Source: Mytilus trossulus
Taxonomy: Eukaryota
DNA: 64,000 bases
Assembly (NCBI RefSeq): GCF_036588685.1
Contig: NC_086380.1
Span: 27,590,001-27,654,000 of the forward strand
Direction: 5' to 3'
Positions 3,187 to 56,811 of this stretch are shown piece after piece (the first letter of the stretch is position 1; each line of letters starts with the position of its first letter). Position numbers and translations under genes: made by a program. Below the pieces are notes generated by a model. The model was not told where the DNA came from. It did not search any database and saw only the letters and a list, made by a program, of their open reading frames with translations.

Positions 3187-3394
3187 ATTAGTTTTATGAC
3201 ATTGTTTTAGTGTAAACTTTAAGCCATTTTTCGGAAAGTAGAATACTTCTGGTACATAATTATGGACTGTTTTTGATGGATGGGTTATTATACTGGTACA
3301 TTTGATAACTTTTTACAATGCGCAAATGTCGGGTACTATCATTATTAAGTCATATTAAAATGTTCATTATTTAAGCATTTGAAATACGTTAGTC

Positions 3395-3705
3395 ATTTCA
3401 GACGCTCATATTCAAGCTTAAATATAAAAAATCTATCCTTATGCCATAATATACCATACTATACCACTTTTCAGATAGTTTTTGTCAAAAATGAAAGTGG
3501 CTGCATTCGTGTTCATTCTTAATATTTAAATGTAAGTTGTATTTGATTATGATGCATAACATATATAAAGGTTGAGGATGAACTCAGATTCGACCACTTT
3601 CGTTTTTGACAAAAATTATCTGAAAAGTGGTATATTATATTATGGTATAGTGTTGCATATTTGATATATTTATCATAATTTAGCTTAAATATGAGCGTCT
3701 GAAAT
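3395..3705. mobile_element. Fold-back (palindromic) MITE, ~310 bp
   Basis: Nested inverted arms: ATTTCAGACGCTCATATT / AATATGAGCGTCTGAAAT and ACCACTTTTCAGATA.TTTTTGTCAAAAA.GAAAGTGG with its reverse complement. Confidence 0.7.
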
Positions 3706-3992
3706 AAATAAATCAGTTCAAATCTTTTACAAAAAATAATTGAATCGACTGATGTAGATACTTAAGTGTTGAAAAAGTGTACAAACCTTTCATCAGATGA
3801 ATCAGAAATTTGATGAAAAAATGGAGACTTACCGGACCTACTGGGTTATATTCTGGTTGGTGCCTTAACAAAGACAAGTTACATTTTTTGCGCTGCTTTT
3901 TCATATTTTAGACATGAGTTTGTTCATGGGGTTGTTAATCTATACGCAGTGTTGCTACTTGTATCCATCAACTTTATTTAATTTTTGAGATA

Positions 3993-6148: not shown

Positions 6149-6219
6149 TATTTAAACCCTCAATATAAAATCTAATAGCGTAGTTTTTGGACAAACTTGA
6201 ATCAGCTTAGGCAGGCAAG
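6149..6219 (+). promoter_or_regulatory. TATA box and non-coding exon 1 of Cys-rich gene A
   Basis: TATTTAAA at 6149-6156, donor CAAG|GTATTT at 6219/6220. The same arrangement is conserved upstream of paralogs B and C. Predicted intron 6220-7301. Confidence 0.6.
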
Positions 6220-7301
6220 GTATTTTACATTTTTATTTATCTTATTGTTAACGACTGCTTCATAGACTTACGACATACAAATTACTAGCAGAATTACTCG
6301 ACGAAATCCAAAATTTTAGCACCTATTCTAACATTTCATTCGATATTAAAACGATTAATGAACTTTAAGAACATCACACACACTATTTGCGTTTACTCGT
6401 TTTGAAAGGAAAGATCTATTCAAATTATGAAAGCATTAAAATTCGATTGTTTATCAATGTTTAGTGTCCTCATAACATTACTGATAAGAAGTAGCATTAT
6501 TCGTTTACAATTATGGTTTCCATATATATTAACATGGAAAAGTTTCGAAACGATTGACAATATTTTGTTGTTTGTTTAGCTTGCAGGGCGTTTATTTTCA
6601 ATACAGTCAGGTTAATTTATTATGGGAATTGTATCAACAATAACATTTTCAGTATTTGAAATGAAAAGACTCACAAGCATGTATGTTCATGATTTTTGTT
6701 AATTCCTCATCGGTATCTTTATGTTAATCATATGTTTCCTTGTTAACGTTCATTTGAATCAATTTTCGTTTAATTTCTGATACAGTAATGTTAGCGACTA
6801 TGATTAAGAATGAGAAAGTCATTGATCTTATTGCTGGGACAATGTCATGTACGGTATTAATTCAAATTGGCAAAAGATGAAAATCAATACAAGAATTAGA
6901 ATAGGATGTATACGAAGTCGTTGATGATGAAAAAAAATAAGAAAAAAAAATTCAATTGATAAAAAACGTTCAAGACAGTTGCTTCGATTGCGAAATATAC
7001 TAGCAAGTAAATTGGCATTAATCTGCCAGAATTTGCATGAAGCTTAGTAACATACAATCAGATAAAAAATTATAAAATTACACTAGTTTCACTGGTGTGT
7101 CTTTTGTCGACGAAATGCGCATCTGGTGTAAATACAAAATGTAATCCTTGTATCTATGATGAGTTTGTTTTGCCGTCTTATATAATTGTGTTTGGTTACA
7201 TGTTCGATATGATTTTTGATAATTTTATTTGAGACATACTTTATGAAAAAAATTTGGTCATTCAATGATATTAAATGTTAATATAATGCATTTTATTTCA
7301 G

Positions 7302-7685
7302 ATGTTTCCCACTTTAACAGCTGTCTTGTTCTTAGTGCTTATAAGCGTCACTACGACAAGCGGTTGCAGACAATGTACAGTCAATGGGCAGCAATATAGG
7401 GGAAATTCCCGCTTTCAGTTTACAAACGGCTGTTCGCGTTATAATTGTATGTGTAACTGTGATGGTAGCTGGAACTGCCCTGCTGAAGATACAACGAACG
7501 ACTGTACTGGATCAAACAATGGCGGTTATAATACGAACTGCAGACAATGTCAACTCAGCGGACAAACATACGCGGGAAACACCCAGTTCTCATATACCGA
7601 TGGCTGTTACCGGTTTAACTGTGACTGCCGCTGTGACGGAAGTTGGACTTGCCCGGGAAGCAGAACACAAAACCTTTGCGGATAA
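7302..7685 (+). CDS. Secreted cysteine-rich protein A (signal peptide + two 8-Cys modules), 127 aa
   Basis: Hydrophobic N-terminus, two 47-aa repeats with identical Cys spacing, splice acceptor TTTTATTTCAG immediately before the ATG, and two intact paralogs in the window. Confidence 0.92.
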   Translation: MFPTLTAVLFLVLISVTTTSGCRQCTVNGQQYRGNSRFQFTNGCSRYNCMCNCDGSWNCPAEDTTNDCTGSNNGGYNTNCRQCQLSGQTYAGNTQFSYTDGCYRFNCDCRCDGSWTCPGSRTQNLCG

Positions 7686-10428
7686 ATGATAATTTGTCAT
7701 TAAATTGCATTTGATTGAAGGTTGATTTTGATTTATTTTTTTCGTTATGAAACTTATTTGAAAATGATCAACACTTTATACTTAGTACTCAGAATATCGC
7801 TAGAAGTAGACAATCGATCCCCGAGAGTACTATCGCGACAGTACTTCAGTACTGATAAGATGTATGTCAAACCATTATATATATGTCTGTTTATAAATTG
7901 TTATTTTATTCCTAAACAATATTTTCAGTCCCCTTGTTCGAATAGATTCAGCTTTCATTTCTAATACATTTCCGGTCATGCAGCTCCTCAATTGCTTTGG
8001 TTCTGAGGTCCCCTAACGTTTCAAATGTTAAGTTTTACGGAAGAAGGCTGTTTAAAAAAGCTCTTCAGACGCATGGAATTCATAAAGTGTTGTAGTCATG
8101 TTCCTATACCAATCAATCTTAACACTGTTTTTTTTAATTGATAATTTGTTTTGATTGTTTTCTCGCTGTGATTCATTGGTACATGTACGTGTAATAACAA
8201 GTCAAAAGACACTAAAGGAACGTTCAAGCTAATACGAAAAAAATCGACCCACAACACTAGTATAAAAAGGTCGAAACGAAAAACAATAGTATACAAAACA
8301 CAACATAGAAAACTTAAGAGTAAGCAACACGAATAAAAAAAAAACACTTTAATTCATTTAACTGTTATTGTTATTTTATCATGTTTATATCCGTCACTGT
8401 TTAGCAGATATGCATTTCAACTAAAGAATTAATTAAACACAAATGATGTTCAAATTGAAAAGGATATGTATAAAAGGAAAGTTACCAAATAATCAAACAA
8501 ACTAAAATGTTAAAAATGAACCAACAGACAGAAATCATAACGACAATTAGAGTTAACAAAAAAAAACATTATAGAAAATATTAAAATCATAGCAGTACGA
8601 AATATGCTAAAACACATGGCTGATCATAGAAACGTCTGATTTGTAAGCAGGTCTTGTTCCATTGTTTGCACTGGTTTTGTTGTGCATAAAAGTCTGTGAC
8701 TGAATTTAACTACCATCGCCTAAGCTTAAGCATATATTTATAGTATACGCATCTTTATCTGAAAAAGTGAGAACAATTATAAAGTGCACATAGATGGAAA
8801 CCCAAATGCAATTAAACAAAAAGAGAAAAGGAGAAAAGTCTAATTTTAACATTTGACTTTTTATATCTGTTTCGAGCGACTTTAGAATTTAAATGAAATT
8901 GCATAATTAGGGATTTTGGCATTTACTATACCTTTTACTTGAATTAAAGTATAGAGATTCTAGATATTTGTAAACTTTTAAATTATAAAAAAATATCATT
9001 AAAGTGTCGATTATGGTCATTTCAAATAGCAGCGGATCTTTTTGTGCATAAGCATAAACTCCGCCAAAAACAAAATCGTCAGATAGATAATAGATTAATC
9101 TTTCATTAACATTAATTTGCATCACTGCCGTTTATGTTAGGGTATGTTTGAGTTGACTGTTATGTATAGAATGTCAAAACTGTCTTGTTCTGCACATTTT
9201 CAATACTTTATATGATGTGTATTTGCGTATATACGATATACACAGAATTGAACAACTCTAGGTCACGTACGGCCTCCAACCATGTGTAACGCCCGTACCG
9301 CATATGCAGCTTTAAAAGTCCCCGAAATGAAAAATGTGATACATTTAAACGAAAACAAATAAAGGCCTAATTCAGATAAACAAAATAAAAGAAAAACAAA
9401 TATGTAACAAATAAAAAACGACAACCACAAAAGTACAGGCACTTGACTTTTGACAGGCACAGATTATAGCGGGGTAACATGTAAGGTGGATCACAACCCT
9501 ACCCGGGACAGGTAATAGGTCAATAATTCAAAGTACTCCTTATAGTGAGTATCTTCATACCACAATTTGCTCACTAGCCTATTCATATCTTCTTAGAGCA
9601 GCATTTTTGCACTTATATGCCAATTCCTTATCCTTAACATTATAATAAAGATATGGCATGATTGCCAATGAAACAAATATCCACAAAAGACCAAAATGAC
9701 ACAGAATGATATGAAATGAATAAATATCGAAAATAATAGAAAATAAAAATAGAAAATAATGAAACCAAATAATTGACCACATTCACTTTTTTACCATTTT
9801 AATAAATTGTATATTCAAAATAATATCTAACTTTAAAAATGATACATTTTTTTATTATTAACTATGTTATTAACGGGCTTATTACTTATTGCACTAAAAT
9901 GTCAATGATGACACGATGACTATAATATTCGTAATTGATATCATTTTAGGTACAATCGTATAAATGAGCATATGCCAATTATCTTCATATTGTCATTCAA
10001 ATAGTAATTTACAAGTTAACTTTATAGTTTTCATATGCTTTTGGATATTTTAAATACTTTAAACGATCCGACTCTATTATAGTTATCTGTCTATTACTTA
10101 TTTGGTCTCATTTGATATTTTTTGTTCCTATACAAACCTGGCCTGTTCTATCTTTAACTTGAAAAATTCCTTTAAAAACCAAACCCATAAGAGGGAAATA
10201 AAAGTTAAAAAAAAACAATTAAAAAGGAAAAAATGACACAACTATAAATAGTATTTCGTGCACGGTAATAGTTTGATTATGAATAATGTTCTTGACAAAC
10301 AGATTAGGAAATTATTAAAGTAATTGTTGTATTTTGAACAACCTGTCAAACAATAATACCTTTGCCTTTTCTTTTTATTACTTTGGTAGTTATTTTTATT
10401 TTGCAATTACCAATTTATAAAATATTTG

Positions 10429-10502
10429 TATTTAAACCTTAAAAATCATTTCTAGTAGGATATCTTTGGACAGAGTAGCACTCAACACAGCAGACACGCA
10501 AG
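10429..10502 (+). promoter_or_regulatory. TATA box and non-coding exon 1 of Cys-rich gene B
   Basis: TATTTAAA at 10429-10436, donor CAAG|GTATTT at 10502/10503. Homologous to 6149-6219 and 21172-21245. Confidence 0.6.
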
Positions 10503-12386
10503 GTATTTACTTTCATTTTCTCCATCAATTTGTCATAAACGACTAATAATATAGACTTACAATGCACATATTTTTTACAAAGAAGATACAAACGGGGTTT
10601 GGCATGCTTAAGATTACCATTGTTACATGGACTCTACTAAAATTAGAAAAAAAGTTCAAAATTCTTAATCCTACTTTTTATGACCTTACAAATGAACTAG
10701 CCGGATCTTAATGGAGTTGTTACCTGGTATTTCTAAAAACGAGGAAAGTATTATGAAATTTAAACACAGCTGCATTTTGGCATTGAAACAGAGAAAATGA
10801 AGTTTTACAGTGACCCTATATCGAATCTCGTTGTGTTTAAGAATATTATACGAAACCCCATTAAACAACATGGTTATATATATCATGGCATGTGCCAATG
10901 TGATGTCTGTCTTTGTAATTGAAAATGATCACCGTTACTACGGAAACAGCATAATTGAACTTTAAAAAAAGCGACCGTTACCATGGCAATTAAGAGACCA
11001 GGGTGCCGTCCACTTTTGCGAGCACCAGGAAACCAACTTTCCCAATTTTACAACTTTTTCTCTTTTCTTTATTTTGATAACCCGTTAATGTCAATTTTTC
11101 TGTAAACCACAAATAGACTCTTGTAAATACACCATATAACACTTATTTTACACTAAAAGATGCAAAACATTTTTAACAGACCAATTGCAATCAATGTCAG
11201 AAAAATATACGATAAATTCGTTGATTTCGCTGTCCATCTACATCTGAATGCGATTTAACAACAGACATAATTCTAAATGTCTCTTTTTCACGTAGGTGAT
11301 AACCTATAAGATATGGACTTAATAAAAGAAAGAAATTGAAACGATTACTACTGGTTATTGATATCACCAACACCTTTTGAATTTTTGTTTCTTGTAAGGG
11401 AACGATCAGTTTAAGTTAGAAAAATGTTCAGTTTGTTCAAACTTTTACCGATATCAATTCGAATACAATTATGGTTTCCGTATAAATATACGTGAAATGG
11501 TCGGGAAATCATTGAAGAAGACAATTCTATATTATAAGATTACAAAGCAGCTCGTTCATTATCATTACATCTAGGTTTATCAACTATAGGAACTGTATCA
11601 ACGATTTTATGTTTAGTACTTTTATTTGACATGTGAGTCACGATCATGCATTTTAAAGAGTTTTTATCAACGGGTTTTGCTAGGTGCTGGTTAATTCTAC
11701 ATTGGCTAGATATATAGGGGAGGGTTGAAGTCTCACTAATCATGTCTAGCTCTGCTAAATTTTAGCACCTCTTTTAAGTCAGAAGCCTCTGCCCTTTGTT
11801 TATTTTTGTTTTTTTTTTAATTTTAGTTCATATATATGTTTTGGAATTAAATATGACGTCAACTTTCATTGAACTAGTACACATTTTTTAAGAGGTCAGC
11901 TGCTTCTACGATTGTGTTTATGAACATTCGAATCAGTGTTTGTACTTGTTATTATTTCTGTTACAGCAATGTTAGCGACTATGTTTCAGAACAAGGCCGT
12001 CATTGCCCTTAATGTTAGCATGTTATTTAACAAAATTGTTGAGTGCAAAAAAAAACCACTTTACAATATTAGCATGTAGTCGTTGATGATAATACAAATA
12101 CGAGAAAATAGTTCCCTCTAAACAAAATCATCCAAACAGTTATTTTGGTTGCAAAACAGACTTGCGAATAGATAAGTTTAGATCTGTCACAAGGCTGTGT
12201 AATATAGGAACAGCAACAAAAATCATGACATCACTCTCGTTTTGTCCTTCTTAAAATTTCTTTTATAAATTAAGTTTTATTTGACTTTTAATAATATTAT
12301 TTTGTGTATAACAATATGCATAAATACTACAAAAAGGTCATTCAATAATGATAAATGTTAATATAAATTAATGATTTTTATTTTAG

Positions 12387-12773
12387 ATGTTTCCCACTTT
12401 AACAGCTGTATGTCTCTTATTACTATTAAGCGTCACCACGACAAGAAGTTGCATACAATGTGAAGTCAATGGACAGAAATATAGGGGTGATTCCCGCTTT
12501 CAATTTACAGATGACTGTTTGCGTTATAATTGTGTGTGTAACTGTGATGGTAGTTGGAACTGTCCTTTTGCTGATGCAACAAACATTTGTGCTGGATCAA
12601 ACATAAGAAATGGTGGGTCTAATTCAAACTGCAGGAATTGTCGATTTAGAGGACACATGATTACGGGAAACAGCATTTTCGAATATTATACTGGCTGTGA
12701 CCGGTTTGACTGTGACTGCAACTGTGATGGAAATTGGTCTTGTCCGTCAAGCAAGAAACAAAACATTTGCTGA
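12387..12773 (+). CDS. Secreted cysteine-rich protein B (two 8-Cys modules, contains RGD), 128 aa
   Basis: Paralog of gene A with the same Cys spacing, acceptor TTTTAG directly before the ATG, and AATAAA at ~12810. Confidence 0.92.
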   Translation: MFPTLTAVCLLLLLSVTTTRSCIQCEVNGQKYRGDSRFQFTDDCLRYNCVCNCDGSWNCPFADATNICAGSNIRNGGSNSNCRNCRFRGHMITGNSIFEYYTGCDRFDCDCNCDGNWSCPSSKKQNIC

Positions 12774-14479
12774 AAAATTTACACTTTGTCATGTAATCGC
12801 ATTTGATTCAATAAATTATAGTTTAAGTTAAAGATTGATCTTGAATGTTTTTTAATGTTGTTTTTTTTTTCGTTATGCAAAATATTTCAAAATAGTGATA
12901 AGATTGACTGGTATAGAAACATGATTACAACACTTTGTAAATTTGTCAAAAGAGCTTTTCTGGAACAACAACATTCTTCCGAAAAACAATATTTGAACCT
13001 AAAGGTAAGTAAGAATAAAACAAAGTTCTGGAGCTACATGACCGAAAATGTTCAAGAAAATAGAGCTAAATCTATTTGCAGATCAACTAAGACAGAGAGG
13101 TCTGCAACTTTTGTTTCGTAAAAAGCTCACAACTTATAAAAAGATAATTATAGAATGATTTGGCTGAAGTACTGTTCCGATGGTATCCTCAGGTACTGAT
13201 TGTCTACTACCACCGATATTTTAATATAACTTTATAACTTTATTTTGGTTTTTATTGGTAAGGTCTTTCGATAGTTTTCTCGCTTTGATTGATTGAATAT
13301 GTACGTGCAATAAGGAGACAAGAGATACTAAAAAACAGTCATGTTAATAAGACGAAATCAAACTAATAACACGAGTATAAACAGGGCCAAACGACAAACA
13401 ACTGCATACAAAACACAACATAGAGAACAAAAGATTAATCAACCCAAACTGATTTATATAACTGTTTTAATTGAGCAATTTGTATATCCTCTACTTTTTA
13501 GTAGATATGGTAGATATGCGTTTTACCTAAAGTCCTGATAATAAAACACAAAAACTGTTCAAATCGATATATAAATTGGTAAAATAAAAAGGTACAAAAT
13601 GATCATGCAAAACGAAACGAACACATAAAAACAACAAATTGAAATATACTAATGAAATTTTATATAGTATTTTACGTAGTTTTACTTGAATTATAGTAAG
13701 GAACTTCGAGATAGTTGTAAAATTTAGACTATAGACAAATTTTCATATGAGAGTCGATAGTTCTCCACAAAGTAGATTTTTTTTTGTAGAGAAACATTAA
13801 CTCCGCCAAAATATACAGATATACAATAATTTATTTTTGTAAAGCATTTAATTACATCTCAGCGCTACAACTTATACCGATGAGAAATGTATAGCTGTTT
13901 TGAGTGGAAATCTTGCAAATATACATCAGACAGACACACAGTAGAACCTACCGGTCCCAAGCCCGGATAAAAGAGGAGGGAAGTATTTTTTCTTTTAATT
14001 GGCGCAATTGTATATTTTATTTTTGGCGCATATGAAACTATTTAACAGGTGGCACAAACGTAGCATCGAATAAAAAAAACAGTTGTGGCCCAACATGACG
14101 CATTTTTGCACAAACGAATCAAAAGAAGATTTAAACACATCAAAACTTACAGTACTAAATAATGAAATATATAGGTCAAGTAAAAAATCTTTCTCACGAG
14201 TCATAAATAAGTAGTATACCGTTGTTCGAAATTCATAAATCGATAGAGAAAAAAAAAATCCGAGTTAAAAACTAAGACTAAGTGAAACGCATCAAATGTA
14301 TACATCATAACTAATGATTAAACTAAAGTGGTGATAAAATACAGAAAAAAAACGGATAAAATACAAAAACAAACTTGGTGTATTCGAATAACAACTTTTA
14401 CTAAAAGTACTTGACGACAGATTAAGAAAATTGATCTTAAAAATGCACAACTTCGAAAAAGATTCATTTTCTGTGTGTA

Positions 14480-14706
14480 CTATATAGGGTTATAAGTCTT
14501 CTGTCCTATTCAAGATATAACGAACATATGGTATGGGTCTAAGTGTAGCCCTATTCGATTAAGATAACAAAAAATACACGGGAAACAGTTGTTTCAACTA
14601 CAACAGTGGCTGTTAGCAGTCAGATAAGTGTGACTGCAACTGTTATGGAATATGGAATTGTCCGTGTAGCGGGACATGGAGGATTTGCAAAAATAAACTG
14701 TTTTGA
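14480..14706 (+). pseudogene. Degraded fourth copy of the Cys-rich gene family
   Basis: Reads CPIQDITNIW (cf. CPFADATNIC) and then KYTGNSCFNYNSGC*QSDKCDCNCYGIWNCPCSGTWRIC. In-frame stop, most of module 1 and the signal peptide missing. The 3' flank is homologous to the gene A 3' flank. Confidence 0.8.
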
Positions 14707-15707
14707 AATACCACTGCTAGTAAACAGTAAGTACCCGAGGGTATCACCGGTGCAGCACCTTAGTACCCACATAATCTATAACAAGCCATTCTATAATTGT
14801 CTGTAAAAGTCTGCTTATTTTATGTTTATTCAGAAACAACAGTTTCAAACCTCACCGGTATAGTTGAACTTAAAATAGATGTAATTACTATTTTAGGTCC
14901 TGATTTATCATATAACTCCTCAACTTATTTGATTCGTTTCCTCCTTGGGTTTCAAAAATGGTTCATTTTCGTGGGTATACATTTTTCTTGGATTGCGGAA
15001 CTTTCGTCGATACTTGATTTCGTGGTTTTGCTAAAACTTGCAAACAAGCTTATAGAAAATTTGAAATTTGTTGAACATCTAAAATAATTCTTCATAAAAT
15101 AGAAGAACTGGTTTCCCACTAATGATATTGAATCCAAAGTATTCGGCTTTGAGCTTCAGGGGAGATGAAAGATCAAGAAAAGGTCATCGGATGCATGAAA
15201 TATATAAAGTGTTGTTATCATTTTACTACACCAGTCGATACTATCAAGCTGTTTGTTTTTTTATTTTTTCAATTTGTTTTTGTTACATTTGGTTTAATTA
15301 GTTTAAGGTATTGTATTGGTTGCTCTTCTGATGGTACCATTTCGAAATGTACTGTTATATCAATTGGTATGTTACTTGGTGTTTGTTTTGTTGCACTTTT
15401 GTGTTTCTGTTGCTCCGTTGTTTTCCTCTTTTTGTTGATGTTTTTCCCTCGGTTTTGGTTTTAACCCGAATTTGTTTTCTTTCAATTAAACTGCGACTTT
15501 TGAACATCAGCATGACACTATTGCCTTTATTTGTACCTTTTATCTATAATTTATGATACGTTAGATTCTTAGTTATATTTTTAAACAGATTAAGATTTTT
15601 TTAAATTATAATGTTGTTGTTGTTGTGTATAAAATATATTGCCTCTTATTATTTATAAAATGCCACATAACAAGTGTTCAAATCAATAATTCAAGTAACT
15701 GTTCATA

Positions 15708-17005
15708 ATTAGGTCTGTCAACTTTTCTGTGGAAAGACCTATTGTATTTCTCCTGATTATTGTTTTTTTTTCCGCCAAGTTTAGAAATTTTTGTTTCGCA
15801 ATATGTCGCTTAAATATTTAGTTTATTGTACCGTAGAGTTTAAACGCTTTTAAATTTCACCCTGTTAAGCCAAACCATTTTCTTTGTAAGAGTTATCTCC
15901 CTATTCACTGTTTATCAAATGTGTGAATCTCCTTCGTAACAAAAAAAGATATCTACAAAATTCTTTATACAATTTGTTTGTTACATCCTCGGGAATGTTT
16001 TGCTAATTTGGATCGAAGCGATTCAATGAAATTTTATAGAAGTTATCTACCTTTATGAAACAAATGTGTCAGTGTGGTTTTTTTAAATCACAAACCGCGT
16101 TTTCTCAGGCACTTTGAAAAATACAGATAAAGGAAAAATTGCAAAATATTTGCTTTATTGTAATGTAGATATGCTACGTTTAGTCTGATACAATTTAATG
16201 GTATCTTATAGGAGTTTGTGCCCCTGAAATGTATTATTATTCGGTTATTTGAATTTAACTTCAACTAAGTTTATTATAAAGCCATTTGACATTGTACCAA
16301 AGTTTAGGAGACATATGACCTTAAAAAATGACTATCGGAAGTGACCTTGACAAAATCAAAATAGTTTGTTTTGCACTTTTTTAAATATAACAGTACTCAG
16401 AATCCATATATGTTGTCATAAAGATACAGAAACTTATCAATCAAGACTAGCAATATCTTTCGACAAACCGGGAGTGGCCAATTATCTCCCGTTGTAAACA
16501 CAAATGTATATAAAAACTTTATATTATTGAAATCAGTGTGACAAAAGCTATCATATGAGACCGGAAATGACATTCATTTCACCGGAAGTAGCATATAAGC
16601 TCGCTCATAGCACTCAAAAGTATATCGAAACCATATATGTATCGAATCAGTAGACAGTTTCTGTTTTTGTTTCAAAATTTATTTGATGTGAAAAGACCTT
16701 CAATTGTTCTTTGATCAATTGGTTTTTAATCTATTGTTATTTTTTCCTTCCGCTTTTTTGTTCTTGCGATAAATATTTGTTTCGCAATATGTGCTGAGAT
16801 GGTATATGATATCAAACAGTTTATGCGCCTTTCAATTTTACCCTGCGTAACCGAAAACTTTTCTTTGTAGGAGTTATCTCCCCGAACACTGTTTTCCTAG
16901 TGTCTACTTTTCCTTTGCAACCGTAAAGTATATCGAAACCATATATGTATCGAATCAGTATACAGTAACTAGCTTCTTTTAAAAATTTCTTCAATTGTTC
17001 TCTGT
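15708..17005. mobile_element. Helentron/DINE-like non-autonomous element with partial tandem duplication
   Basis: 5' short inverted repeat AGGTCT...GGAAAGACCT; 3' AAAGACCTT followed by hairpin CAATTGTTCTTTGATCAATTG. 16730-17005 repeats parts of 15750-15910 and 16615-16720. Confidence 0.45.
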
Positions 17006-19329
17006 TTGTTTTATAAATACCTCCATCTCTTCCTTTGTTATCTTTTGCCTCCTGTCTTCCTAATCTACACATAGCATCGTTTTTAAATCATTGAACAAAT
17101 TACCTATCAATTCATCGTTTTATCATAGAATTAACACAAAAGTGATTTCACTATTGATTGCACTATATAAATATAAAAATCCCATATCTTTTATATTACT
17201 TAATGTGAAATGAAAATATACGATGAAGAAATACTATACCGAAAACAAAGTTAGATGAAGATATAGGACAATGAAGCCAAATAACCGAAAATTACATTCA
17301 CTGTTTTACCATGTTAATAAATTGTATATTTGAAATCATATTTAACATGTTTACTATACCATGGATACATTTATAATCAATTACTATGTTATTAACGGAC
17401 CTATTACATATTGCGCTTAAATGGCAATGAGAACACGATGCTCTCATTATTCGTAATTTATCAATTAAGTTACAATCGTAGTAATGATCAGTTTCCATTT
17501 ATCATCCAATCTTCATTTAGAGAAGAGATTAATTAGTATTTTACATGTTTACTACATATGTTTCATGTGCTATTGAATATAATATAAAGACAACAGTAGT
17601 ATACTGATGTTCGAAATTCATAAATCGACGAGAAAAAAAAACCAAATACGGGTTACAAACTAAATCTGAAGGAAATTTATCGAATATAAGAGAACAATGA
17701 CACAACAGAATCATTTGTTTTTATCTTTTACTTGAAAAATTGAGTTAAAAAAACAACCAAAACATCTTACAAATAATCTGGAAAAATATGCATTGTACAG
17801 AATAGTAGCAGGAAAGTAAAAGGTGATATATATTTTAAAGTGTGAAAGTCGTCAGGAAGTATTAAATAAAAAACGGACTGGAGGGAGTTTTTTTTACCCA
17901 TATTGACAGCTGCAGTTCTATCTTAAAGACCACACTAAAGTGGGATATGGTTTTGTGATGCATTCGAGTTTTCTAAGTAAATTGTAGATCATGAAATGGG
18001 ATGTCATTTTTATCCATTTCTTTTCAATACATATTCATTGCGGAGAAACAGATAGTTTTTTGAACAGGTTTTAACGAGCAGTTAAGGATTATTGTATTTC
18101 TTCTCATTTGAATGACACTGCATTGTTACAACAGCGAGAGAACTAAGACAGAACTGAAAATTATACTCCATCTCCATTGTTAATCCAACAATCCTATTAT
18201 AAAAGAGGACCGATAGATATCAGAGGAACAGTCAGACTCATAAATCTAAAATATACTGACAACGCCATGGCTAAAAATGAAAAAGACAATAAGTTAAACA
18301 ACAATACTCATGACACAACATAGGAAACTAGAAAACTAAAGAGTAAGCAACACGAACCCCACTTTATTCTATAAACACATGATAAAGTACGTGATTGTTA
18401 TTCTATAAAAATTTAAAAAGTGAGTTATTTGAATATTTGATAAAGAAAAGAGTATATGTATATATAGATATAATAAAAAAATAAATGATAAGTTTTGCAT
18501 TATGAACTTCATCTCAGATATTGTACATCTATTGTGGCAATACATTAACAAAATTTCTTTTTTATTTGTTTCGAAAATTAAAAAGTGCGTCCACAACGAT
18601 GTTTTGTAATTCAGTCTAATAAACAGAGGACAAATTTGTGTATGTCTTAATCCACAACACATGACAGGTATCGTACTAATAAGTTGTGCAAGTAAACTAT
18701 GTAAATTCTATTCATACTTAATATCGTCCAGGTTGATTCTTCAAAAGAAACACCTGTCGATCTAAAAACAAATGAACTCAACATACATGACATAGTTAAA
18801 TAAGTATTGATATCCATATTGATAAGATTTTAGTAAGTTTTTCTAAATGGATTGAATTTTGAATAAATTATCATATTCACCTGCAGAAAAAGTATATTCA
18901 CCGCGCAAACCGTCGCGTGCTTTTACTAGCATAATTTTAGTAAAAAAAAAAATGATATACAATTGATTCTGGTAAATAATTGCAATCACATTCTTTTTTT
19001 TTCGGAATATGGAATACAACTATTACTGTCTTTAATTTCTGTATGTTTTTTCGGTTAATATTTGGTTTAAATGACTTTTTAAGAGAATATCAGTTTTTCA
19101 AAAGTTCAATAAAAATTATATAAGCCTTATGAAAAGACAATAGTTGTATTAAATTCATCTGTAACCAATGAAAGTGAATACTGAAATAGAGTATATTGAA
19201 TAAATAGAGTAATCTTCCAAATTGTTTTATAATCTGACGACAAATGTGCCTTTTTTAAAGGCATGTTGCTAAGATACATTTAATAAGGTGATTCATCCTG
19301 ACATTACTTCTTATCATTATCACAGTTAA

Positions 19330-20294
19330 GGGCATATCCAACAGTTTATTTCTGACGGTGAGAATTTTTTCCTGGTATCTATGATGAGTTAATTCACTAT
19401 ATGAAACTGATAATTTGATTGCTCCCGTGCTCCAGTGGCAAATATATCACGCATATTTACGACGAAGCGAAAGTGGATCTGAAGTAAATCATTGATGCAT
19501 TATTATGATAAAGAGTTTGCTAGTGGTAAAACGTATGCCGTACTAGAATAAAGTTGCAAAATTATATTTGTATTTGTTTCCTCATACACCTTGAATACCA
19601 AAATCGTCAGATATTTTCTACTTGTATGTCAGTGTATATATTACAATGTTTTCCTATTTCATTTTTTTTTTTAATTATAACCGTGTCATCTTTTGTTTGA
19701 CATTGTTTTACGAGTTAAAGGTGGTATTCATTTAAAAAGCTACTGTACATTAATAGCACTTCAACGCAAAGCGTGATGAATGTTAGTTTACGCCGTATTT
19801 TATTTTTTCTCAAGAAACCTTTTTTTTTCATCTTTCAAGTAAAACCAAACTGTGGGTTTTCTATTTTGAATGTCAAAATCTCGGAAAAGTTTGGTAAATA
19901 ACAATTTGCATTCTAATGAAATAATAAATCATTATGCATTTGTTCCCGTAGTTCCTTACTGCATACATGTATTGACGATAATTTCAATAAAACGGAAACT
20001 TAAGTGAGTATGGTCTATAATGATCAAGATAATTGTATTTCTTTTATGATAGACTAAGAGGACAAAGATATCTTTAAAGATTTGAGTTCTAATTTCTGTT
20101 AATATTCTGTATGAGTTTTTTGCCGATTCGCGCCGTGCTCTTTCCTTTGATGAAAGAACCCTCCCTTTCCAGAAGGCCATAACAATTCCAATGGTGATTC
20201 CGTTATGACGTCGTTGAAACAACGTTAAATTACGGGAAACAATAGACGACGTTTACGTTTGTTATTACCTCCCCTGAAACTGTTGGATATGCCC
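19330..20294. mobile_element. Non-autonomous TIR element with TTAA TSD (Kolobok-like)
   Basis: Perfect 18-bp TIR GGGCATATCCAACAGTTT / AAACTGTTGGATATGCCC, flanked by TTAA on both sides. Confidence 0.7.
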
Positions 20295-21171
20295 TTAACT
20301 TCGAAGAAGCTAGCATGCCCTCTACTACGCTACATTCATAGTATAGTGAAGCGACGTCACCACTGTTTCGGAATTTGACGTCTCACATGTTTATAAAGAT
20401 GATGATTCAATCGCTCAAACCAATAAGTACATATACCAAGTTTTTTACTGTGTAAACGGAATATTTTCCTCTTATTTGTACGAGATAATAATTATAGCGT
20501 CACTGGTTTCTTTCCTATCCTAGTCTTTTACAAATCAATATTTTTTAAGAAATATTAAAATATCTTTTCTTTCTATTCATGCTATTGTAACAGATGTGCA
20601 TTCTATAGAAGTTAGAACACGTAAAAAAAGGCTTATGTCTTGCATTTTCTTCTATGTTTCGTTTTACTTATTTACTTTTTTTGCATGACATTAAGGAATT
20701 AGGCATTTGTTTTTTTATTGTTTCTTATGTCGATATTGCTTAATTTCTTATCCCCTCATCCTCCCTTTGAATATGCCTTGTTGTTTATTATTTTTGTTTT
20801 ACTTTTTGTCAGTAAATTGAGCTGAAGCAGTTAAGAATATTGGTCTTTTATTTGGGGTTGTCTCAATAATGCCACGTCTTCTTTTGTATCTAAACAAATT
20901 TAGTTAAAAAAGATGCAGCAAGTTTTTCCGAATAGCAACAGTTCATGCATATGTCAAAAGCGTGTTGATAATGAAACAAGATTATTCTGCTATAATTAGT
21001 ATTACGTGCACCGGTCTGCATTTCATTATGTTCTTGACAAACAAATAAAACATTATAGTACTGTAATTGTTGTATTTTGAACAACCTCTCAATCAATAAT
21101 AACACAGCATTTACCCTTTATTACTTTTGTAGTTATATCTATTTTGCAAATACCAGTTCATAAAAGATTTG

Positions 21172-21245
21172 TATTTAAACATAAAAAATCAAGTCTAGTA
21201 GCATAGCTTTTGACACAGTTGTACTCAACACAGCAGACATGCAAT
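21172..21245 (+). promoter_or_regulatory. TATA box and putative non-coding exon 1 of Cys-rich gene C (weakened donor)
   Basis: TATTTAAA at 21172-21179. Aligns with gene B exon 1, but the donor reads CAAT|GTTATT. Confidence 0.5.
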
Positions 21246-23663
21246 GTTATTTACTGTCATCAATTTTCATTGGTTTTGGGTCATAAACGACTTCTTATAA
21301 AGACTTACACCTTTGTGAAGAGGGCTTACAACTTTGCCTGTTGCCCAATCTAATTCAATTTATTTGAATAAAATATTGTTTAAAATTAAACTAAACTTAC
21401 AATGTACATATTGCAAAAGAAAGTAATCGAATATATACATAATCTAAGCAATGTAGTAGTACAGTTGTTATCACTTATTCTAAACTGGAATTCCGTCCTT
21501 GGATTTTTAACATCAATATTGTTTGGGCAATTGCTTGACTTGAATCAGAAAAACATGCCTCTAAAACATTTTGTTTATTTGCTCATCACTGTTGAAACTT
21601 TTACAGACAAAACACCTGTTTACACACTTCAATCCTGGTATATATGATGAGTTTAATTATACGTAAAGGTGGATCATATGTATTCATTTCCTCAGATGAA
21701 ACTCTGCCGAAATAAAGATTGTAAATTTGTTTTCAAACAAATGATAACATGTGTAGGTTACCGTTCTATTGTTTAAACTAAACGTCGTGCAAAATTAGCA
21801 TTTCGCATATATTGTAAATGGTAAATCAAACTTTTGTGAATGAGTAGAAATATTTGAGATAGAATTTTACAATAAAAAACAGGAAGATCGGTGTTTAAAT
21901 ATGATTATTGAAAAAAAACCGGAGTAAACGAAAATTGTTCGCCTACTACAAGTTAGTTAAATAATGAAAACTTCACCATCAGTCAAGTATACAAATTGTA
22001 CTCTGAGTTTTATCTCCCATGATTGACCAAGTTGATACTATAAATACAAGACCAAACGGGAGTCTCCTGATTATAAAGGGCACATTTATTACCTGAATAA
22101 TGACGTAAAAGGTTCAGACGTAAACATTACATGTGTTTATAGCAAATTCGAAATGTTGTTCTTTCTGCACCCTCCCTTTCTTTGATTCAGTAAGCAATGC
22201 TTATTCGCTATGTAAACTACATCTTGACCTTAAATTCATAGACCAATGCCCTTAAATTGCAAGCTAATATGTGCTAAATGCTTGTTAAGAGACACACAGA
22301 AATTCGAATCATAAAACAATTCGGAGAAATTTCGTTGATTTCGTAATACGGATTCCTATACTTAAGAATATGGATAATAATACTTCTTATAGTCGTTGTT
22401 TGCACCTATCGTCGCCGGCAGCTTGTTCGTTGTTATTCTAATTCAGTTAATCAACTATAGAAATGATATCAAAGATTTACATTTAACCATTTCATGCATC
22501 ATTTATGGGAATTATCTTTACTAATCTGTTCGTCTGTTCGTCCCGCTTCAGGTTAAAGTTTTTTGGTCAAGAAAGTGTTTGATGAATTTGAAGTCCAGTT
22601 AACTTGAAACTTATAACACGTGTTCCATGTGACCTTTCTCATTTTGACTCCAATTTCACGGTCCACTGAACGTATAAACCGAGAGTGCAACTAGGGTATC
22701 TGTGTACTATGAATTAATTATTATTCTTTGACATTTCAAGGGTCACAATTATGTTTTTCAAAATTATGATCTTTATCAGTGGTGTCTTTATATTGTTTTT
22801 TTTATGTAACAATCAATGTGTACAAACAATACTATATGTTTTAATACTTTTTCATTTCTGACTATGTTTTTTTCGTAAGTCATTGCTGTCAATGCTGGGG
22901 CACTAACAAACATGCAATTCAATCAAATGTTGGGATTTAAAAAAAATCAGCACCAAGCTGTCAATGAATAAAGAAAAGAATAATCAAAAAGTATTTACCT
23001 AAATAAAGGCAATCAAAACATTCATTTTGACTGCAGTGTAGACTGCGAATAAATTATAAAAACAATCTGTCAAATTGATGCACATCATAAAAGGCATGCG
23101 CAAGTTTATAAGTATACAACTTTCCGTTTTCACTCTGTATCTAATTAGACAATATACGTATAGTGTCTTGAAATATGAAATTTATTCGTATGAGGCTTAG
23201 AAACGGGAAAATGCGAGGTTCTATCGAGGTACCATTTTGGGGGATTTCCCTATGAACGTAGTCCAGGCGGTAAGACATTGAGATATTAAGGAATTAAAAA
23301 GGAAATTAACTTAATTAATAACATTTGATAAACATGGTATATAAATAACCATTTTGAAGACATAAAAGTTTAAATTCATAAAAGTTTGATCATTGTTACT
23401 TTAAGTTATCATGGTCGTAACGTGACGTTGTTGATGAAATACAGTAGTTCCGGTAAGGAGGCGGGACTTGTAGGTTAGTTGAGGTCATTGACGTATAAAG
23501 CTAACGTTTATACGAATAGCTTTATCTGTATAGTAGAATAGCTGATTGCAGTATAATTTCTTTTTTTCTTACTTTTTATAATATTATTAAACACCTATGC
23601 ATACATATTACAAGAGTTATCATACAATGATATTAAATGTAAATATAACAAATTTTGTTGCAG

Positions 23664-24047
23664 ATGGTTCACACCTTTACTGTTGTATTTCTTTTAATGC
23701 TGATAAGCGGCGTCACCGCTACAACCAGATGCAGACAATGTCAAGCCAACGGACAGAGATATAGGGGACATTCTCGATTCCAGATAACAGAAGGCTGTTT
23801 ACGTTATAATTGCATCTGTAACTGTGATGAAGGATGGGATTGTCCTCCCCAGCGTCCAACAAACGTGTGTTCTGGGTCAAATTATGGTGGTTCCAAATCG
23901 AACTGCAGAACCTGTGAAAGGGAAGGAAGAAAGTACCAGGGAAACTGTCGTTTCCAATTTACAGATAGCTGCTATCGGTTTAACTGTGACTGCGACTGTG
24001 ATGGAAGTTATAAATGTCCATCAAGCAGGACGCAAAACATTTGTTGA
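23664..24047 (+). CDS. Secreted cysteine-rich protein C (two 8-Cys modules + one extra Cys), 127 aa
   Basis: The true start is the ATG at 23664, after the acceptor TTTTGTTGCAG (the ORF-track start at 23655 is intronic). Same Cys framework as A and B; AATAAA at ~24094. Confidence 0.92.
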   Translation: MVHTFTVVFLLMLISGVTATTRCRQCQANGQRYRGHSRFQITEGCLRYNCICNCDEGWDCPPQRPTNVCSGSNYGGSKSNCRTCEREGRKYQGNCRFQFTDSCYRFNCDCDCDGSYKCPSSRTQNIC

Positions 24048-26849: not shown

Positions 26850-27345
26850 ATTTATTATACTTCACGTTAAAATGCCATATTTGCTAAGACGAGAGTGTCA
26901 ATTTACTCTAGCACATAGCTGAGAGGGTGACATTTTTTTTTTAATGTTACCCAATCAGAAATCGATAATTCAAAGAACAATAAATTGAATTTACATCAAG
27001 GAATTACATACAATGTTTAAGTTCTACGTTTTGGCTCAGATTTTGTTATCGACTGTTTAAATACATAAAATAAAACATCTTATTTGACTTTTGTTGTCTT
27101 TTTTTAATGCCCGTAGGTTGTTATGAACGTGACGCCATAGAAAATACTTTTAAAATAAAAGTAATCTGTAAAAACCAATAATCATAGGACATTCAGTAAA
27201 ATAAATTAAATAACACTTAGCTGAAAGGGTAATAGAGCAGATTGGAACCCCTCGAAAAGGCATTGTAAACCTTGGCTTCGCCACGGTTGACAATGTTTTC
27301 TCGGGGTACCAATCTGCTCTATCACCCTCTCAGCTATGTGTTTAG
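26850..27345. mobile_element. Non-autonomous element with terminal long hairpin
   Basis: 27211-27343 folds into a ~60-bp stem. A second copy lies in reverse orientation at 43446-43865. Confidence 0.65.
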
Positions 27346-31569: not shown

Positions 31570-32254
31570 GTGAGTTTTAACTATAATGCGCTTTTCATGA
31601 ATGCTGGATATAATTTTATTTTTTAAATTATTTCGTATTTTTGGAATATTTAAATGTAATCAGGACTTCAAAACGTAGGTCTGACTGCGAACATATTACT
31701 GTGTAAGTACTTATTATTTGTGGGTATCACTTAATATGGTTTGGGCACAAGTTGCATGTGTGTCGTTTCTTTTTACTTGGATTTAAGTTTTCTGGGGGGG
31801 ACAATTTGAATGTTCTAGAACTAATATTCTTCAAATTAATTATAGCATATTGATTTGTGGGAAATTGTCCTATAGTTGTTAATGTTTGTGTCATTTTGGT
31901 CTTTTGTGGATAGTTGTCTCATTGGCAATCATACCACATCTTCTCTTTTAAATCATCACTGTGTATAAAATCTGTTAAAGGGATGATATCTATCTTATCA
32001 TTTGGAACCTTGGGTAAATGAGATTCGTTAAAGGCAACAATTATATATCAATAGACTAATGCATGTAAAGACAAACTCTGAGAAATGTCGTATCAACTAA
32101 GTTATATTAACTCTATATTTAGGACTTCCCAAACGTAGAAAAAGAATGTAAATATTTGTTAAGCTAAGATCATCTCGTAAAATTTGTTCTCGACCGATCT
32201 TCATTGGCAACCCGATTGAGAAAACACTTATAGTATAACTAATCGCCGTACTTT

Positions 32255-32625
32255 AATATAAAAAATAAGACAATGCGTTACCGAACGACGCATGAATTAA
32301 ACGAGTGCGCAGCACGAGTTTAATCCATAGCGGCGTTCGGTCACAAGTTGTATTATTTTTTATATTCAAATACGGCGAAAAGTTATACTTTTTATTACAT
32401 TGGCTAGTGGCTTTTTTTTTATGAAATCAAGGTAGAAAATGTAAGGAACTATATGTGTTTCCTACGCATTCACAATTTGTTTTGATTAGACGTTATCAAA
32501 GTCTTGACAACGCATATTGTTGTATGACGTCAGAGAGTAAAATAACCACGTTTATTTTACATGTGAAATTATCGGTTTTTATCTAACTGGGAAATCAATG
32601 TAATTTATTGAAACCAATGTAACAA
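32255..32625. mobile_element. Non-autonomous element with terminal long hairpin
   Basis: 32255-32370 forms a stem around CGAGTGCGCAGCACGAG. The right boundary is approximate. Confidence 0.5.
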
Positions 32626-52572: not shown

Positions 52573-54316
52573 GATGGCCAAAAAGATATATGTCTATGAT
52601 TGTTGATTATAGATGTTGTTAAAACGTTTTCTGTTTCATTGGTGTTTTTTTTTGTTTTGTAATTTGTACAACTTTATATGAAATTATTTAAAAATGAAAA
52701 AGACAAATGTTTCTATTGGTATTATATTCATGCGTCCAAAATCATATTTTATTGCCGCCAAAATAGTTTATGTAAAATTTTAAGTTTTTATTACTTTCTT
52801 AATTCTTAAATTGTATATCTTTCGTTGAAAGTTGAATATTTATGTTGTCACTTCATTCGTCAAAAATGAATTGTTCATATTTTATGATTGATTAAGGCAA
52901 TAATAGTATACCGCTGTTCAAAAGTCATGAATCGAATGAAATAAAAACAAATAAAGGTTCCACATTAAAACTGATAGCAACACATCAACTATAAAAGGAA
53001 TGCAACGGAACAAACAGACACACTGACAAACATAGAAACGATATAATTGATATTAACTGTGATATTCTTGACATGGTACAGGACATTAAATGAAAAAATG
53101 TAAGCATGACACGGGTTTCTGATTAGTTAACCTCTCGCTTATATGGCAATGTTAAAGACATATTGCGACGGGAAAACATCACAAACAAACAAAAGAACAT
53201 TTAGCACAGAAAAAAATACAATAAATAGCAAAATCATAATATACGTTACAATATGTTAATCACAAAATAACAACGATCATTTTCCTTTAACAACAGCTCA
53301 AGACACAGTGACGTCATTTTTGTGACGGATATATAATCTTCAATTTAACACAATTATTTTCACAACACTAGTCCATTCTAACGGCAAACACGCGATTAAC
53401 AACTATAGTTGATGTGAACCTTGTAATACATTCACAGGACTTCAAATATTTGAGTTGATTTAAAAAAAAAACATTTATAAGTAAGCAATGCCTGTTGTTT
53501 TCAAATTTTATGTATCCTTATTTGTGCTTCTTTGATAAATATTTGTTTCTTTTTTGTTCTGGTCGATATTGTCACACAGTGATGATTGCGGTATCCCTAT
53601 TTTAACGGTTTGACCTGTTGAGTCTGTTTTTGTCGCGCATCGTTTTAGATATGTCGGAGTTTGATGCAGCCTAAAACTAACGGCACTAATGGACACCGAA
53701 TTTCTATTAAATAGTTCAGATACAATTTCGAACGAAGAAAACATTAGTTTATTTCTTATGGTACAAAGGTTCATTATCAAAACTAAAAGGTTTACAAACT
53801 AATGACTCACACAATAAACCTGTAAGCATTTCGTCTTATCAGTTGCATTTTTTCTTTACTTTTCAGTTCATTATGTAACTCAACTGACAATATCAATATT
53901 CTTATTATGTAACAGAGCATGTAGTTTTGATTTATTTGTGTATAATGTATTTAATTTACCAAGGAAACATATTAATATAAGCAATTGTTGCTTGTTTCTG
54001 GATCCTTATTGTGTATGTGTTTATAATTTATACTTGTATTTACCATAATAAAAATATTGTTTACACTAAATTGGTGCAATTTAAATATAATTTTGTAAAG
54101 TAAATGACGTTTACATGTTTTATCAACAAATGAAATGCGCTCAGCTAAATAAATAATTTAGTTCATTTAATATTCATACTTTCTTATTAGTATCCTTCTT
54201 TATACAAACACAGGTACAAACAAATTAAAGAATTTTAAATAATATTTTTATGAAAGCACATTTAGATTTTCTCCAACACCCCAATATTCAGACATTTATT
54301 TTTATCTCAATTGCAG

Positions 54317-54694
54317 AAAATTTCACTGAAAGTGCTGATGTTGTTATGTACCCACCTTCACCAGCATACGCTGATCTCGGTCAACCTCTAACATTGATGT
54401 GCAAGACAAATATAACTGATCTATGGAAAAGTACTTCAATTTACGACGAAACAAATTCTAATGGAGTCCCTAATGTCTTATATTTTGAAAAAGCGGTTGA
54501 TGGTACATGCCGCATATCAATTTCAAATCCAAATGTATACAATACTACTTGTGATTTAGCTATCGGAGAATTTAATTTGACTTTACTGTCCGTAGAGCAA
54601 AAATACCATATGATGTTCATAAGATGTAGTGTAAAATTTTCCAACGGAGCATCAAAGGTATTTGAGAATGCAACCACAGTGATATCCATTATAG
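54317..54694 (+). CDS. Nephrin-like IgSF protein, exon 2 (Ig1, V-like)
   Basis: TTGCAG acceptor, G|GTCAGT donor; GQPLTLMC...FNLTL...IRCSV. Confidence 0.85.
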
Positions 54695-55488
54695 GTCAGT
54701 TTTTTTTACTGAGTTAAGTATTATCTATGTCTATCAACATTAAATCTTCTTTTTGAAGATTGGTTACTAGCTGAGAAAGAAAGGAAAGTGAGACATAAAG
54801 ATAGATTTTGTGTGCATGCAAGAGAGAGAGAGGGAGATAGAAAGAATGGATATTTTACATACAAATCTGTATTATTTAAGTCATCACTCTTTATATACAA
54901 TTTAACATATATTGTAGAAAAAAATGGTATAATTGTACCCTTTGATAAACTGTAATTGATACATTTGTTATCCATTACATTTGAAGAGGTGTCTTAGCCA
55001 TGTGATATTACTTTCGTTATCAACTGCTCCCGGGTATTATCACATGTTTTTTTTTTCTGGAGCGTAATGATATTTTGACGTTATGTCTCGGGAAACTTTG
55101 TTACATACACTTCAATTGACGTTTGGAGGGGGAAAACTAGTAAAGAAGGATTAATAAAAACGATATAAAGAGACAGGAAAATATTATTAAAAAAAGGACA
55201 AAACAAATATTCCAATAAATATATATTTTTTAAATCTTGAAAAAGGTTCACATGTTTATATCTTTTGGTTCAAACAAATTATGTTGATTATTAATTATAA
55301 AAGTACATTCTATATATACATTCACAAAATGGATTCAGAAACAAGTGCTTATATGTTAATCTATCATCTGCCTTTTGTCAAGTTCACATCATAATTCAGA
55401 TTTGTCAGGATGATAAGTATTATTTATCTCATCAGGCAGTTTATTTCATTCAAAGCTACTACAAATCAATTGAAAGTGTCTTTTTCAG

Positions 55489-55779
55489 AGGTTCCGTCGT
55501 CTAATACAATTCTTATCACGGCGAATCCTACAGGACCAATTAATTCTGGAGATACATTACATGTGACTTGCTCTTTATCTGGTGGGAATCCATTAGCAAT
55601 TCTTACTTGGAATTGTAGTGGGACTGCTATCAACAAATCTTCAGAAAAATCCGCTTTTCTGGATATCGCATTAACAGTTGGACAACAGGACGATGGAACA
55701 ATCTGTACATGTTTTGCCAGCCATCGTATTGCGTCGTACAACGCTACAGCGGAAAAGGTTATTAGCCTAAAAGTGTATT
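55489..55779 (+). CDS. Nephrin-like IgSF protein, exon 3 (Ig2)
   Basis: GDTLHVTCSLSGGNPLAILTWNC...DDGTICTCFA; phase 1-1. Confidence 0.9.
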
Positions 55780-56526
55780 GTAAGTTAATTAAACAGAAAT
55801 TGAACAGTTTGACTATGGCTTAATCCTTTACCCTTCTTAATTTGAATAGTTAAACCAAATTAAGCATTGAAAAAAGCACTTTTGATCTGATTGAATACAG
55901 GAAGAAATATCGATTTACTCTACAATTTGACTACCTGTCTACACCAAAATTTGAATATACATGACAGAGTTTACTGTTTTCAATCAGCATACATTGTACT
56001 TTACAGTCTAATTCTATAAAAATTAAAAGAAGATATGGGATATTATTTAAAAATGAGACATCAATTAAGCGATGACAAAAACGACAAAAACATTTTCACA
56101 GCTAATATAAGGTTTCGACACATGTTCGTATATGTTCATACTTCGTAAAAGGGTTGATGTATCCCCATGTCAAAAGTGTTTAATCCTCCTTTACTTATTG
56201 GAGATCATGTGTTGTTCATCAGTAGTTTTCGTTTCTGTATATCGATGTTCTGGGAAAAGTTGAGTTCTGATGGTTGGTGAAGTCAGTCGTGCTATCTAAT
56301 ATGTAACGCCGTTCTATTGTTTTTAATTTTATATACAATTCCACAATAGAAAGGTTCTATACAAATGTTAAGGCTCGTAATTGTTCCTCGTCTAATTATA
56401 TAATAAATTGAGCGACTCTTTTGGATTGTTTAAAGCATCACAAACATGTACAATATAATATATTTGATCAACATAAAATATGAATTAACATATGCATGTT
56501 TGTCTGAAAACAAATATATATTCTAG

Positions 56527-56811
56527 TTCATCCCGAGGTTACACCGACAATTACACAAGTTCCAGAGGGAAATATCGATACTGGAGACCTTGTTCTTCTG
56601 AATTGTACTCTGAACGGAGGAAACCCTGTTGTCACTTTATCATGGAACTGTAGTGGTAACAATCACGTGACAATTTCAGGGAACACCGTAGTTAATACAA
56701 TTGAATTCAATGTTAACAGCTCTTACCATAATACAGTATGTACTTGTCTAGCGTCACAAGATACAATCGATAGTTATTCTGATAGTGCCAGTCATATGTT
56801 GAACGTTATCT
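56527..56811 (+). CDS. Nephrin-like IgSF protein, exon 4 (Ig3)
   Basis: GDLVLLNCTLNGGNPVVTLSWNC...HNTVCTCLA; phase 1-1. Confidence 0.9.

Follow-up and report, generated by a model that had tools for sequence, protein, structure and literature searches.

The 64,000-nucleotide stretch of the Mytilus trossulus genome analysed here (NC_086380.1, positions 27,590,001 to 27,654,000 of the forward strand; hereafter the window) carries three intact genes for small secreted proteins, each built of two 47-residue modules with eight patterned cysteines. These genes belong to a new family within a known fold group. The same repeat is present in a giant secreted protein across molluscs, so the module is not a mussel-only invention, and its predicted fold resembles that of the FN1 domain (the finger of fibronectin). 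We favour a reading in which the modules act as non-catalytic extracellular binding units, multivalent in the giant and of low valency in the small forms, and we regard this reading as about evenly balanced between right and wrong. The features of the three genes and of a broken fourth copy are as follows.

6164-6170, plus strand: TATA-like box of gene 1, a putative promoter element (sequence and regular-expression scan; kept in the copy on contig C17)
6192-6219, plus strand: non-coding 5' exon of gene 1 (5' end approximate; one X1 contig)
6220-7301, plus strand: intron of gene 1, with AG immediately 5' of the ATG
7302-7685, plus strand: coding exon of gene 1, open reading frame (ORF) of 127 amino acids (aa), net charge +1
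7302-7364, plus strand: predicted signal peptide of gene 1
7365-7505 and 7539-7679, plus strand: modules 1 and 2 of gene 1, with a linker between them
12387-12773, plus strand: coding exon of gene 2, ORF of 128 aa with predicted signal peptide, net charge 0
12450-12590 and 12630-12770, plus strand: modules of gene 2
about 14499-14705, plus strand: remains of a broken fourth copy (module 1 end, linker and module 2), frameshifted and containing an in-frame stop codon
23664-24047, plus strand: coding exon of gene 3, ORF of 127 aa with predicted signal peptide, net charge +5/+6
23730-23870 and 23904-24044, plus strand: modules of gene 3, the second with a ninth cysteine

The ORFs confirm the original prediction of three intact paralogs, each with a signal peptide and two 47-aa modules; the signal peptides are predicted from hydropathy only, the N-terminus being hydrophobic in genes 1-3. 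Gene 2 shares 66% identity with gene 1, and gene 3 shares 62%. The spacing of the cysteines had been described as invariant. Eight cysteines are indeed kept in all six modules and the spacing 2,18,4,1,1,5,8 is exact in five of them, but the sixth (23904-24044) has, besides its eight pattern cysteines, a ninth within the 18-residue gap. The window contains six matches to the eight-cysteine spacing pattern, while 0 of 200 shuffles gave any. The motif G-x2-Y-x-G-x3-F, earlier described as conserved, is kept in five modules and lost from one, and the residues between cysteines, earlier said to diverge strongly, are in fact 31-69% identical between window modules. Hand-counted charges of +1, 0 and +6 are in agreement with our values of +1, 0 and +5 counted from the first cysteine, the third becoming +6 with the preceding arginine. 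Three is the correct number of intact copies in the window, but the cluster is larger: it extends upstream beyond the window edge, and the window itself holds the fourth, broken copy. This remnant is recovered by tblastn at expectation values (E) of 5e-6 to 0.06 and by blastn to a C17 copy at 74% over 153 bases (E 6e-21); its 5' half was not found within the window.

All three window genes are transcribed, with RNA contigs lying on each of them. Gene 1 is covered by contigs from runs X1, X2, X3 and X11, while genes 2 and 3 are each covered by one X3 contig (12385-12566 and 23679-23993, respectively). Runs X2 and X11 are recorded as RNA and X1 is RNA by guess. A single X1 contig bridges 6217 to 7300 across the gene 1 intron, with GT..AG ends, a cut at +2 and a short side of 26 letters, and the intron bin 6335-7001 is almost empty in all four runs that cover gene 1. 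The AG acceptor adjoins the ATG in all three window genes and in 12 of 13 delimited ORFs, the exception being a frameshifted copy. Gene 1 is also present in aquatic and seawater metatranscriptomes. Runs X21-X24 contain next to no gene 1 words, yet X22 has the giant gene; this does not prove that expression is restricted.

A profile of 41 modules searched against 1.84 billion proteins recovered 111 representatives, the two weakest of which are a pacifastin/VWC protein and an SVWC protein; another, P0068, was judged spurious in appearance. All species-named matches are molluscs, comprising 32 species of bivalves, gastropods, cephalopods and one chiton (four classes). Many matches carry no species name, and a range outside molluscs therefore stays possible. 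P0009, which at first sight looked non-molluscan, is 72% identical to a giant-form module. The giant members are about 1,500-4,600 aa long and consist of repeats (18-69 modules in the ten giants examined) and Ser/Thr/Gly-rich spacers; they are found in Octopus and Elysia too. Small forms of two and three modules are named only in Mytilus and oysters, the Saccostrea member being a three-module form. Four proteins (P0239, P0100, P0086 and P0091), with named representatives in Magallana gigas and Ostrea edulis, form a divergent two-module subfamily on a branch separate from that of the mussel-like small genes. One Mytilus edulis model (P0041, CAG2241244.1) seems to fuse two neighbouring small genes, as it has a second signal-peptide-like stretch in mid-protein. 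A tree was built of modules from the small genes and from three bivalve giants. In it, some giant modules of different species group by position and the modules of the small genes are scattered among those of the giants, all with weak support. From this we infer a descent of the small genes from the giant, by one or several origins.

The database labels 'Balbiani ring 3-like' and 'kielin-like' are automatic names on members of this family. The Balbiani ring 3 silk protein of Chironomus has a short CXCXC repeat of about 26 residues. Identity with it was rejected, the repeat here being 47 aa long and the so-named P0253 and P0012 giving no CXCXC match in Pfam.

As the original prediction had it, no named family fits: no curated Pfam family was found for the three window proteins or the 41 modules, and ten larger family proteins gave only a lectin domain (in one protein) and summed-repeat noise with no passing stretch. 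A single-sequence search of the PDB gave 0 hits and an Atlas search with gene 1 gave no usable match. The module profile, on the other hand, has only three matches in the PDB, all of them fibronectin FN1 chains, though weak (E 0.03-2.3). In this alignment C2, C4, C5 and C7 of the module fall onto the four cysteines of FN1, and the G-x2-Y, C-x-C and G-x-W-x-C elements align as well. An AlphaFold2 model of gene 1, built from 38 aligned sequences (mean predicted local distance difference test, pLDDT, of 68.9; linker unresolved), shows each module as a hairpin and a three-stranded sheet, with no helix of four or more residues. Rows 1-13 of a Foldseek search with this model are all FN1-containing fibronectin chains (E 4e-4 to 1e-2). 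Rows 1-7 of a VIA-align comparison with 48,161 chains are FN1 domains as well (Z 4.4-4.8), six of the seven superposing 40-45 residues at a root-mean-square deviation of 1.8-2.4 A; FCGBP, more FN1 chains and VWC (Z 3.6-3.8) follow. An Atlas comparison gave look-alike clusters of VWC2L, pacifastin and nematode Fn1_2 with scores of 0.75-0.79, which we take as leads only. The scores are middling, but the three methods agree on a predicted FN1-like fold, and the resemblance to FN1, earlier noted as merely a loose echo, thus turns out to be the best structural match of the module.

The pairing of the eight cysteines can be approached through the modules that have lost some of them. From 1185 hits we obtained 1089 unique full modules and, at less than 70% identity, a set of 689, leaving out P0068, P0112, P0113, non-representative cluster members and modules cut at protein ends. 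These modules are related by descent, so that the losses are not independent events. C1 and C6 are lost together in 87 modules and singly in 10 (phi 0.94), C3 and C8 together in 73 and singly in 59 (phi 0.67), and C4 and C7 together in 5 and never singly (phi 1.0), whereas C2 and C5 are each kept in at least 99.6%. This pattern points to bridges C1-C6, C3-C8 and C4-C7, leaving C2-C5, that is, an FN1 core with two extra bridges. The core disulfides of FN1 itself are 1-3 and 2-4, and its second bridge fits the C4-C7 co-loss. Each module would accordingly consist of a beta-hairpin packed on a three-stranded sheet, with four disulfides to stabilise it: C2-C5 and C4-C7, shared with FN1, and the additional C1-C6 and C3-C8.

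Like the FN1 domains of fibronectin, tPA and factor XII (PDB 3EJH, 2CG6, 3CAL, 4BDX and 1TPN), with which it shares the predicted hairpin and three-stranded sheet, the mollusc module is of about 45 residues and occurs in tandem arrays of secreted proteins. However, FN1 has four cysteines and the mollusc module eight, and no match to Pfam fn1 was found in the three window proteins, the 41 modules or the ten family proteins. Unlike FN1 proteins, the mollusc proteins contain only this module and low-complexity spacers, barring one lectin fusion. A review describes FN1 as largely confined to chordates (PMC3308698). The families Fn1_2 (PF23003, MIG-18-like, of nematodes), FnI_RECK (PF25028), SVWC (PF15430), Pacifastin_I (PF05375) and VWC (PF00093) differ from the module in the number and spacing of cysteines, and none of them matched any family member in the Pfam scans. 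By clan membership all five share its broad fold group. Since FN1-like families exist in invertebrates, the FN1-like fold is not new outside chordates.

Two members of this fold group suggest functions of their own. Pacifastins are characterised by a C-N-x-C-x-C core, a reactive loop C-T-x3-C and disulfides 1-4, 2-6 and 3-5. The inferred bridges C2-C5, C3-C8 and C4-C7 mirror this topology, and a three-disulfide core is likely common to both. With a pacifastin/VWC-repeat protein among the weakest profile matches, and pacifastin clusters among the Atlas leads (0.75-0.78), one could therefore suppose that the small proteins are pacifastin-like inhibitors of serine proteases. However, the reactive loop occurs in 0 of 689 modules, which have instead an 8-residue loop that usually begins with proline; the module reads C-x4-C-x-C in place of C-N-x-C-x-C; and Pacifastin_I has no match in the 41 modules or the ten family proteins. 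We consider the inhibitor function very improbable. No catalytic motif was recognised in the module either.

Binding of BMP/TGF-beta growth factors, in the manner of the VWC repeats of kielin, chordin and crossveinless-2, could be proposed because VWC is the next fold match after FN1 and some members are labelled 'kielin/chordin-like' in databases. VWC has ten cysteines and a C-terminal subdomain with CCxxC, and this subdomain is missing from the 47-column profile of the mollusc module. Pfam VWC matched no family member, whereas the outlier P0112 scores E 4e-42 with it; a profile comparison of the module with this VWC/pacifastin protein gave an uninformative probability of 32%. The rapid gene turnover described below would, in our judgement, also be unusual for developmental regulators, and a role of this kind seems the most remote of those considered here.

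A genome search with gene 1 as query yielded 38 matches out of 52 candidates. On the contig of the window (C8), about 73 kb contain nine loci, namely five intact two-module genes, one intact one-module gene and three broken copies. The one-module gene, of 68 aa with a predicted signal peptide, is the smallest family member; it lies just upstream of the window (C8 27587743-27587949, L043:8743-8949) and is present on C17 too. A two-module copy at about C8 27540727 (L039:727-1105) has a frameshift in its signal-peptide part while its close relative P0004 is intact; either the allele is null or the assembly is wrong at this point. At about 80-95% identity, contig C17 (5.5 Mb) runs collinear with the window; it has counterparts of all three genes and may represent an alternate haplotype or a duplication. 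Its interval 3880001-4080000 (L047-L066) includes 24 kb that are internally duplicated at 98%, as well as a broken family copy into which a tandem repeat is inserted. The giant gene is located on C10, where open frames of 1345 aa and 962 aa, together containing at least 31 modules, are spliced together in three of four runs, and its signal peptide begins in a separate upstream exon, unlike in the small genes. This giant paralog is 97-98% identical to named proteins of Mytilus galloprovincialis and M. edulis. Nine near-identical six-cysteine modules of the giant gene, all without C3 and C8, are found at about C10 40816857-40818365 (L033:8857-9879 and L034:3901-4365), indicating a recent internal expansion.

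Intact, one-module and broken copies standing side by side fit the birth-and-death evolution that had been proposed, and together with the small, secreted, disulfide-rich nature of the products they recall antimicrobial or directly toxic defence peptides. Mussel defensin, mytilin, myticin and mytimycin are likewise small, secreted, cysteine-rich, clustered and subject to gene gain and loss. Some copies are cationic (+4 to +5), and ratios of non-synonymous to synonymous substitution (dN/dS) are fairly high in some pairs. Nevertheless, several observations argue against this reading, which we hold to be distinctly unlikely. The mussel CS-alpha-beta peptides have a C-x3-C helix motif, a cationic mature peptide and a propeptide. 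In the proteins described here C-x3-C is absent from all six window modules; the cysteine spacing is another one, as the original prediction had noted, the build is two-module and predicted all-beta, the model being without a helix of four or more residues; and the stop codon comes at most 4 residues past the last cysteine, leaving no propeptide. The 13 ORFs scored have net charges between -2 and +5, there is no defensin-type Pfam match, and the module is mainly used in proteins of about 1,500-4,600 aa. The Nei-Gojobori dN/dS of the mature region is 0.17-0.96, below 1 in all 45 pairs of 10 genes; leaving out the invariant cysteines, which biases the ratio upward, it exceeds 1 in 6 of the 45 pairs with a maximum of 1.26. 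This shows constraint with fairly fast change, and positive selection is not demonstrated. The earlier description of a 'diversifying effector' is thus not borne out by these ratios, nor is protease inhibition, with the pacifastin-type loop absent from 689 of 689 modules.

The binding role stated at the outset is favoured because the best structural matches are FN1 pairs with collagen and adhesin peptides, and because of a snail plasma protein. FN1 binds extended peptides by strand addition at the edge of its sheet. According to their entry titles, the FN1 pairs matched by Foldseek were crystallised together with peptides of collagen and of bacterial adhesins. The family includes P0253, a 32-module protein with the same name and species as a Biomphalaria plasma protein. 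This 'balbiani ring protein 3-like' protein has been recovered on columns of schistosome larval proteins (PMC5433772), with 8-13 unique peptides in all four conditions and little or no protein on control columns (S2 Table of the same paper). Among the giants, the snail member P0256 is fused to a C-type lectin domain. By analogy with the FN1 arrays of fibronectin, the giant would use a large number of weak contacts to hold on to extended stretches of collagen-like or foreign surface proteins, in the haemolymph or the matrix. The small proteins, which carry two modules of predicted FN1-finger-like fold behind a putative signal peptide, would then be non-catalytic binding units outside the cell, performing the same binding with low valency and varied specificity. 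The small genes are probably short derivatives of the giant that underwent tandem multiplication in mussels and have counterparts in oysters. A bolder version, in which the family is the mollusc analogue of the fibronectin finger array, the giant being an ancient protein of the haemolymph whose up to 69 FN1-like modules, of four disulfides each, zip onto collagen and onto parasite or microbial proteins and mussels and oysters having cut it into one- to three-module opsonins or decoys, appears to us rather unlikely.

Several points weigh against a binding role. The authors of the snail study class the plasma protein as non-immune and leave non-specific binding open (PMC5433772); its accession XP_013096729.1 is paired with P0253 by name and species only, and the finding bears on the giant rather than on the small proteins. 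The AlphaFold2 model is of moderate confidence (predicted TM-score 0.41); Foldseek TM-scores reach only about 0.3, owing to the different orientation of the two modules of gene 1; and a VIA Z below 5 can reflect a common small beta arrangement. The additional C3-C8 tail could block the edge strand of the sheet. The lectin domain of the snail giant P0256 (Batillaria; N-terminal, C-type, E 8e-20) may come from a gene-model join. As for the descent of the small genes, support in the tree of 47-aa modules is weak, and the exon layout differs between the small genes and the giant. Finally, the transcript contigs come from other individuals and report presence only, with no level, tissue, stage or strand.

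Some of the same features could be read as those of a structural or adhesive matrix (larval glue, byssus cuticle, mucus or shell matrix) whose proteins assemble with one another or become cross-linked, the giant being a silk-like scaffold. The giant is repetitive with Ser/Thr/Gly-rich spacers, the small forms occur only in attached bivalves among the named matches, the ninth cysteine of gene 3 is possibly free, and the metatranscriptome matches of gene 1 would fit larvae without showing larvae. Octopus and Elysia, in which the giant is also found, are without byssus and adult shell. Moreover, the paired loss of cysteines is expected of internal disulfides and not of free cross-linking thiols. 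Mussel cuticle contains the cysteine-rich proteins mfp-16 to 19 (PMC7018715). The scallop byssal protein Sbp5-2, as described, has two cysteines per repeat and 8.4% cysteine overall as against eight per module here, and is no match (PMC9117251). Scallop 4C-repeat proteins and quagga mussel byssal proteins with kielin matches were likewise rejected by their descriptions. On balance a matrix role seems unlikely to us.

Some other features of the region were observed. Upstream of the cluster, C8 27515409-27517722 (L045) has open frames of 617 and 158 aa with, by eye, EGF-like, laminin-EGF-like and thrombospondin-like cysteine patterns. Within the window, 54250-63000 (plus strand) contains several exon-sized ORFs of a gene for a multi-immunoglobulin-domain protein, two of which have sub-cut-off Pfam immunoglobulin scores (E 2e-4 and 2.5e-6). 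Self-complementary stretches at 3377-3723, 27212-27342, 32232-32389 and 40919-41178, and numerous short dispersed repeats, are probably miniature transposon copies. A run of 141 N letters (45101-45241) is distant from the gene cluster.

In the open literature no paper describing the family was found, subscription journals and most supplements being outside this coverage; the one mention encountered is an entry in a snail plasma proteome (PMC5433772). The four-disulfide molluscan family and its giant-and-small architecture appear to be undescribed, with the sequences of mfp-16 to -19 outside the comparison. Novelty is capped by the fact that the FN1-like fold group is already known, invertebrates included. 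Within that limit, the analysis names a phylum-wide secreted protein and module now mislabelled in databases as Balbiani-ring or kielin-like, and supplies a predicted fold and disulfide map, together with single-exon members of 12 kDa that should pose little difficulty for expression. Should the binding role prove true, molluscs would own a fibronectin-finger-like recognition or matrix system. It would be a testable candidate for mediating contact between snails and schistosomes and between bivalves and microbes, and would show in nature how a small multigene family can arise from a giant repeat protein.

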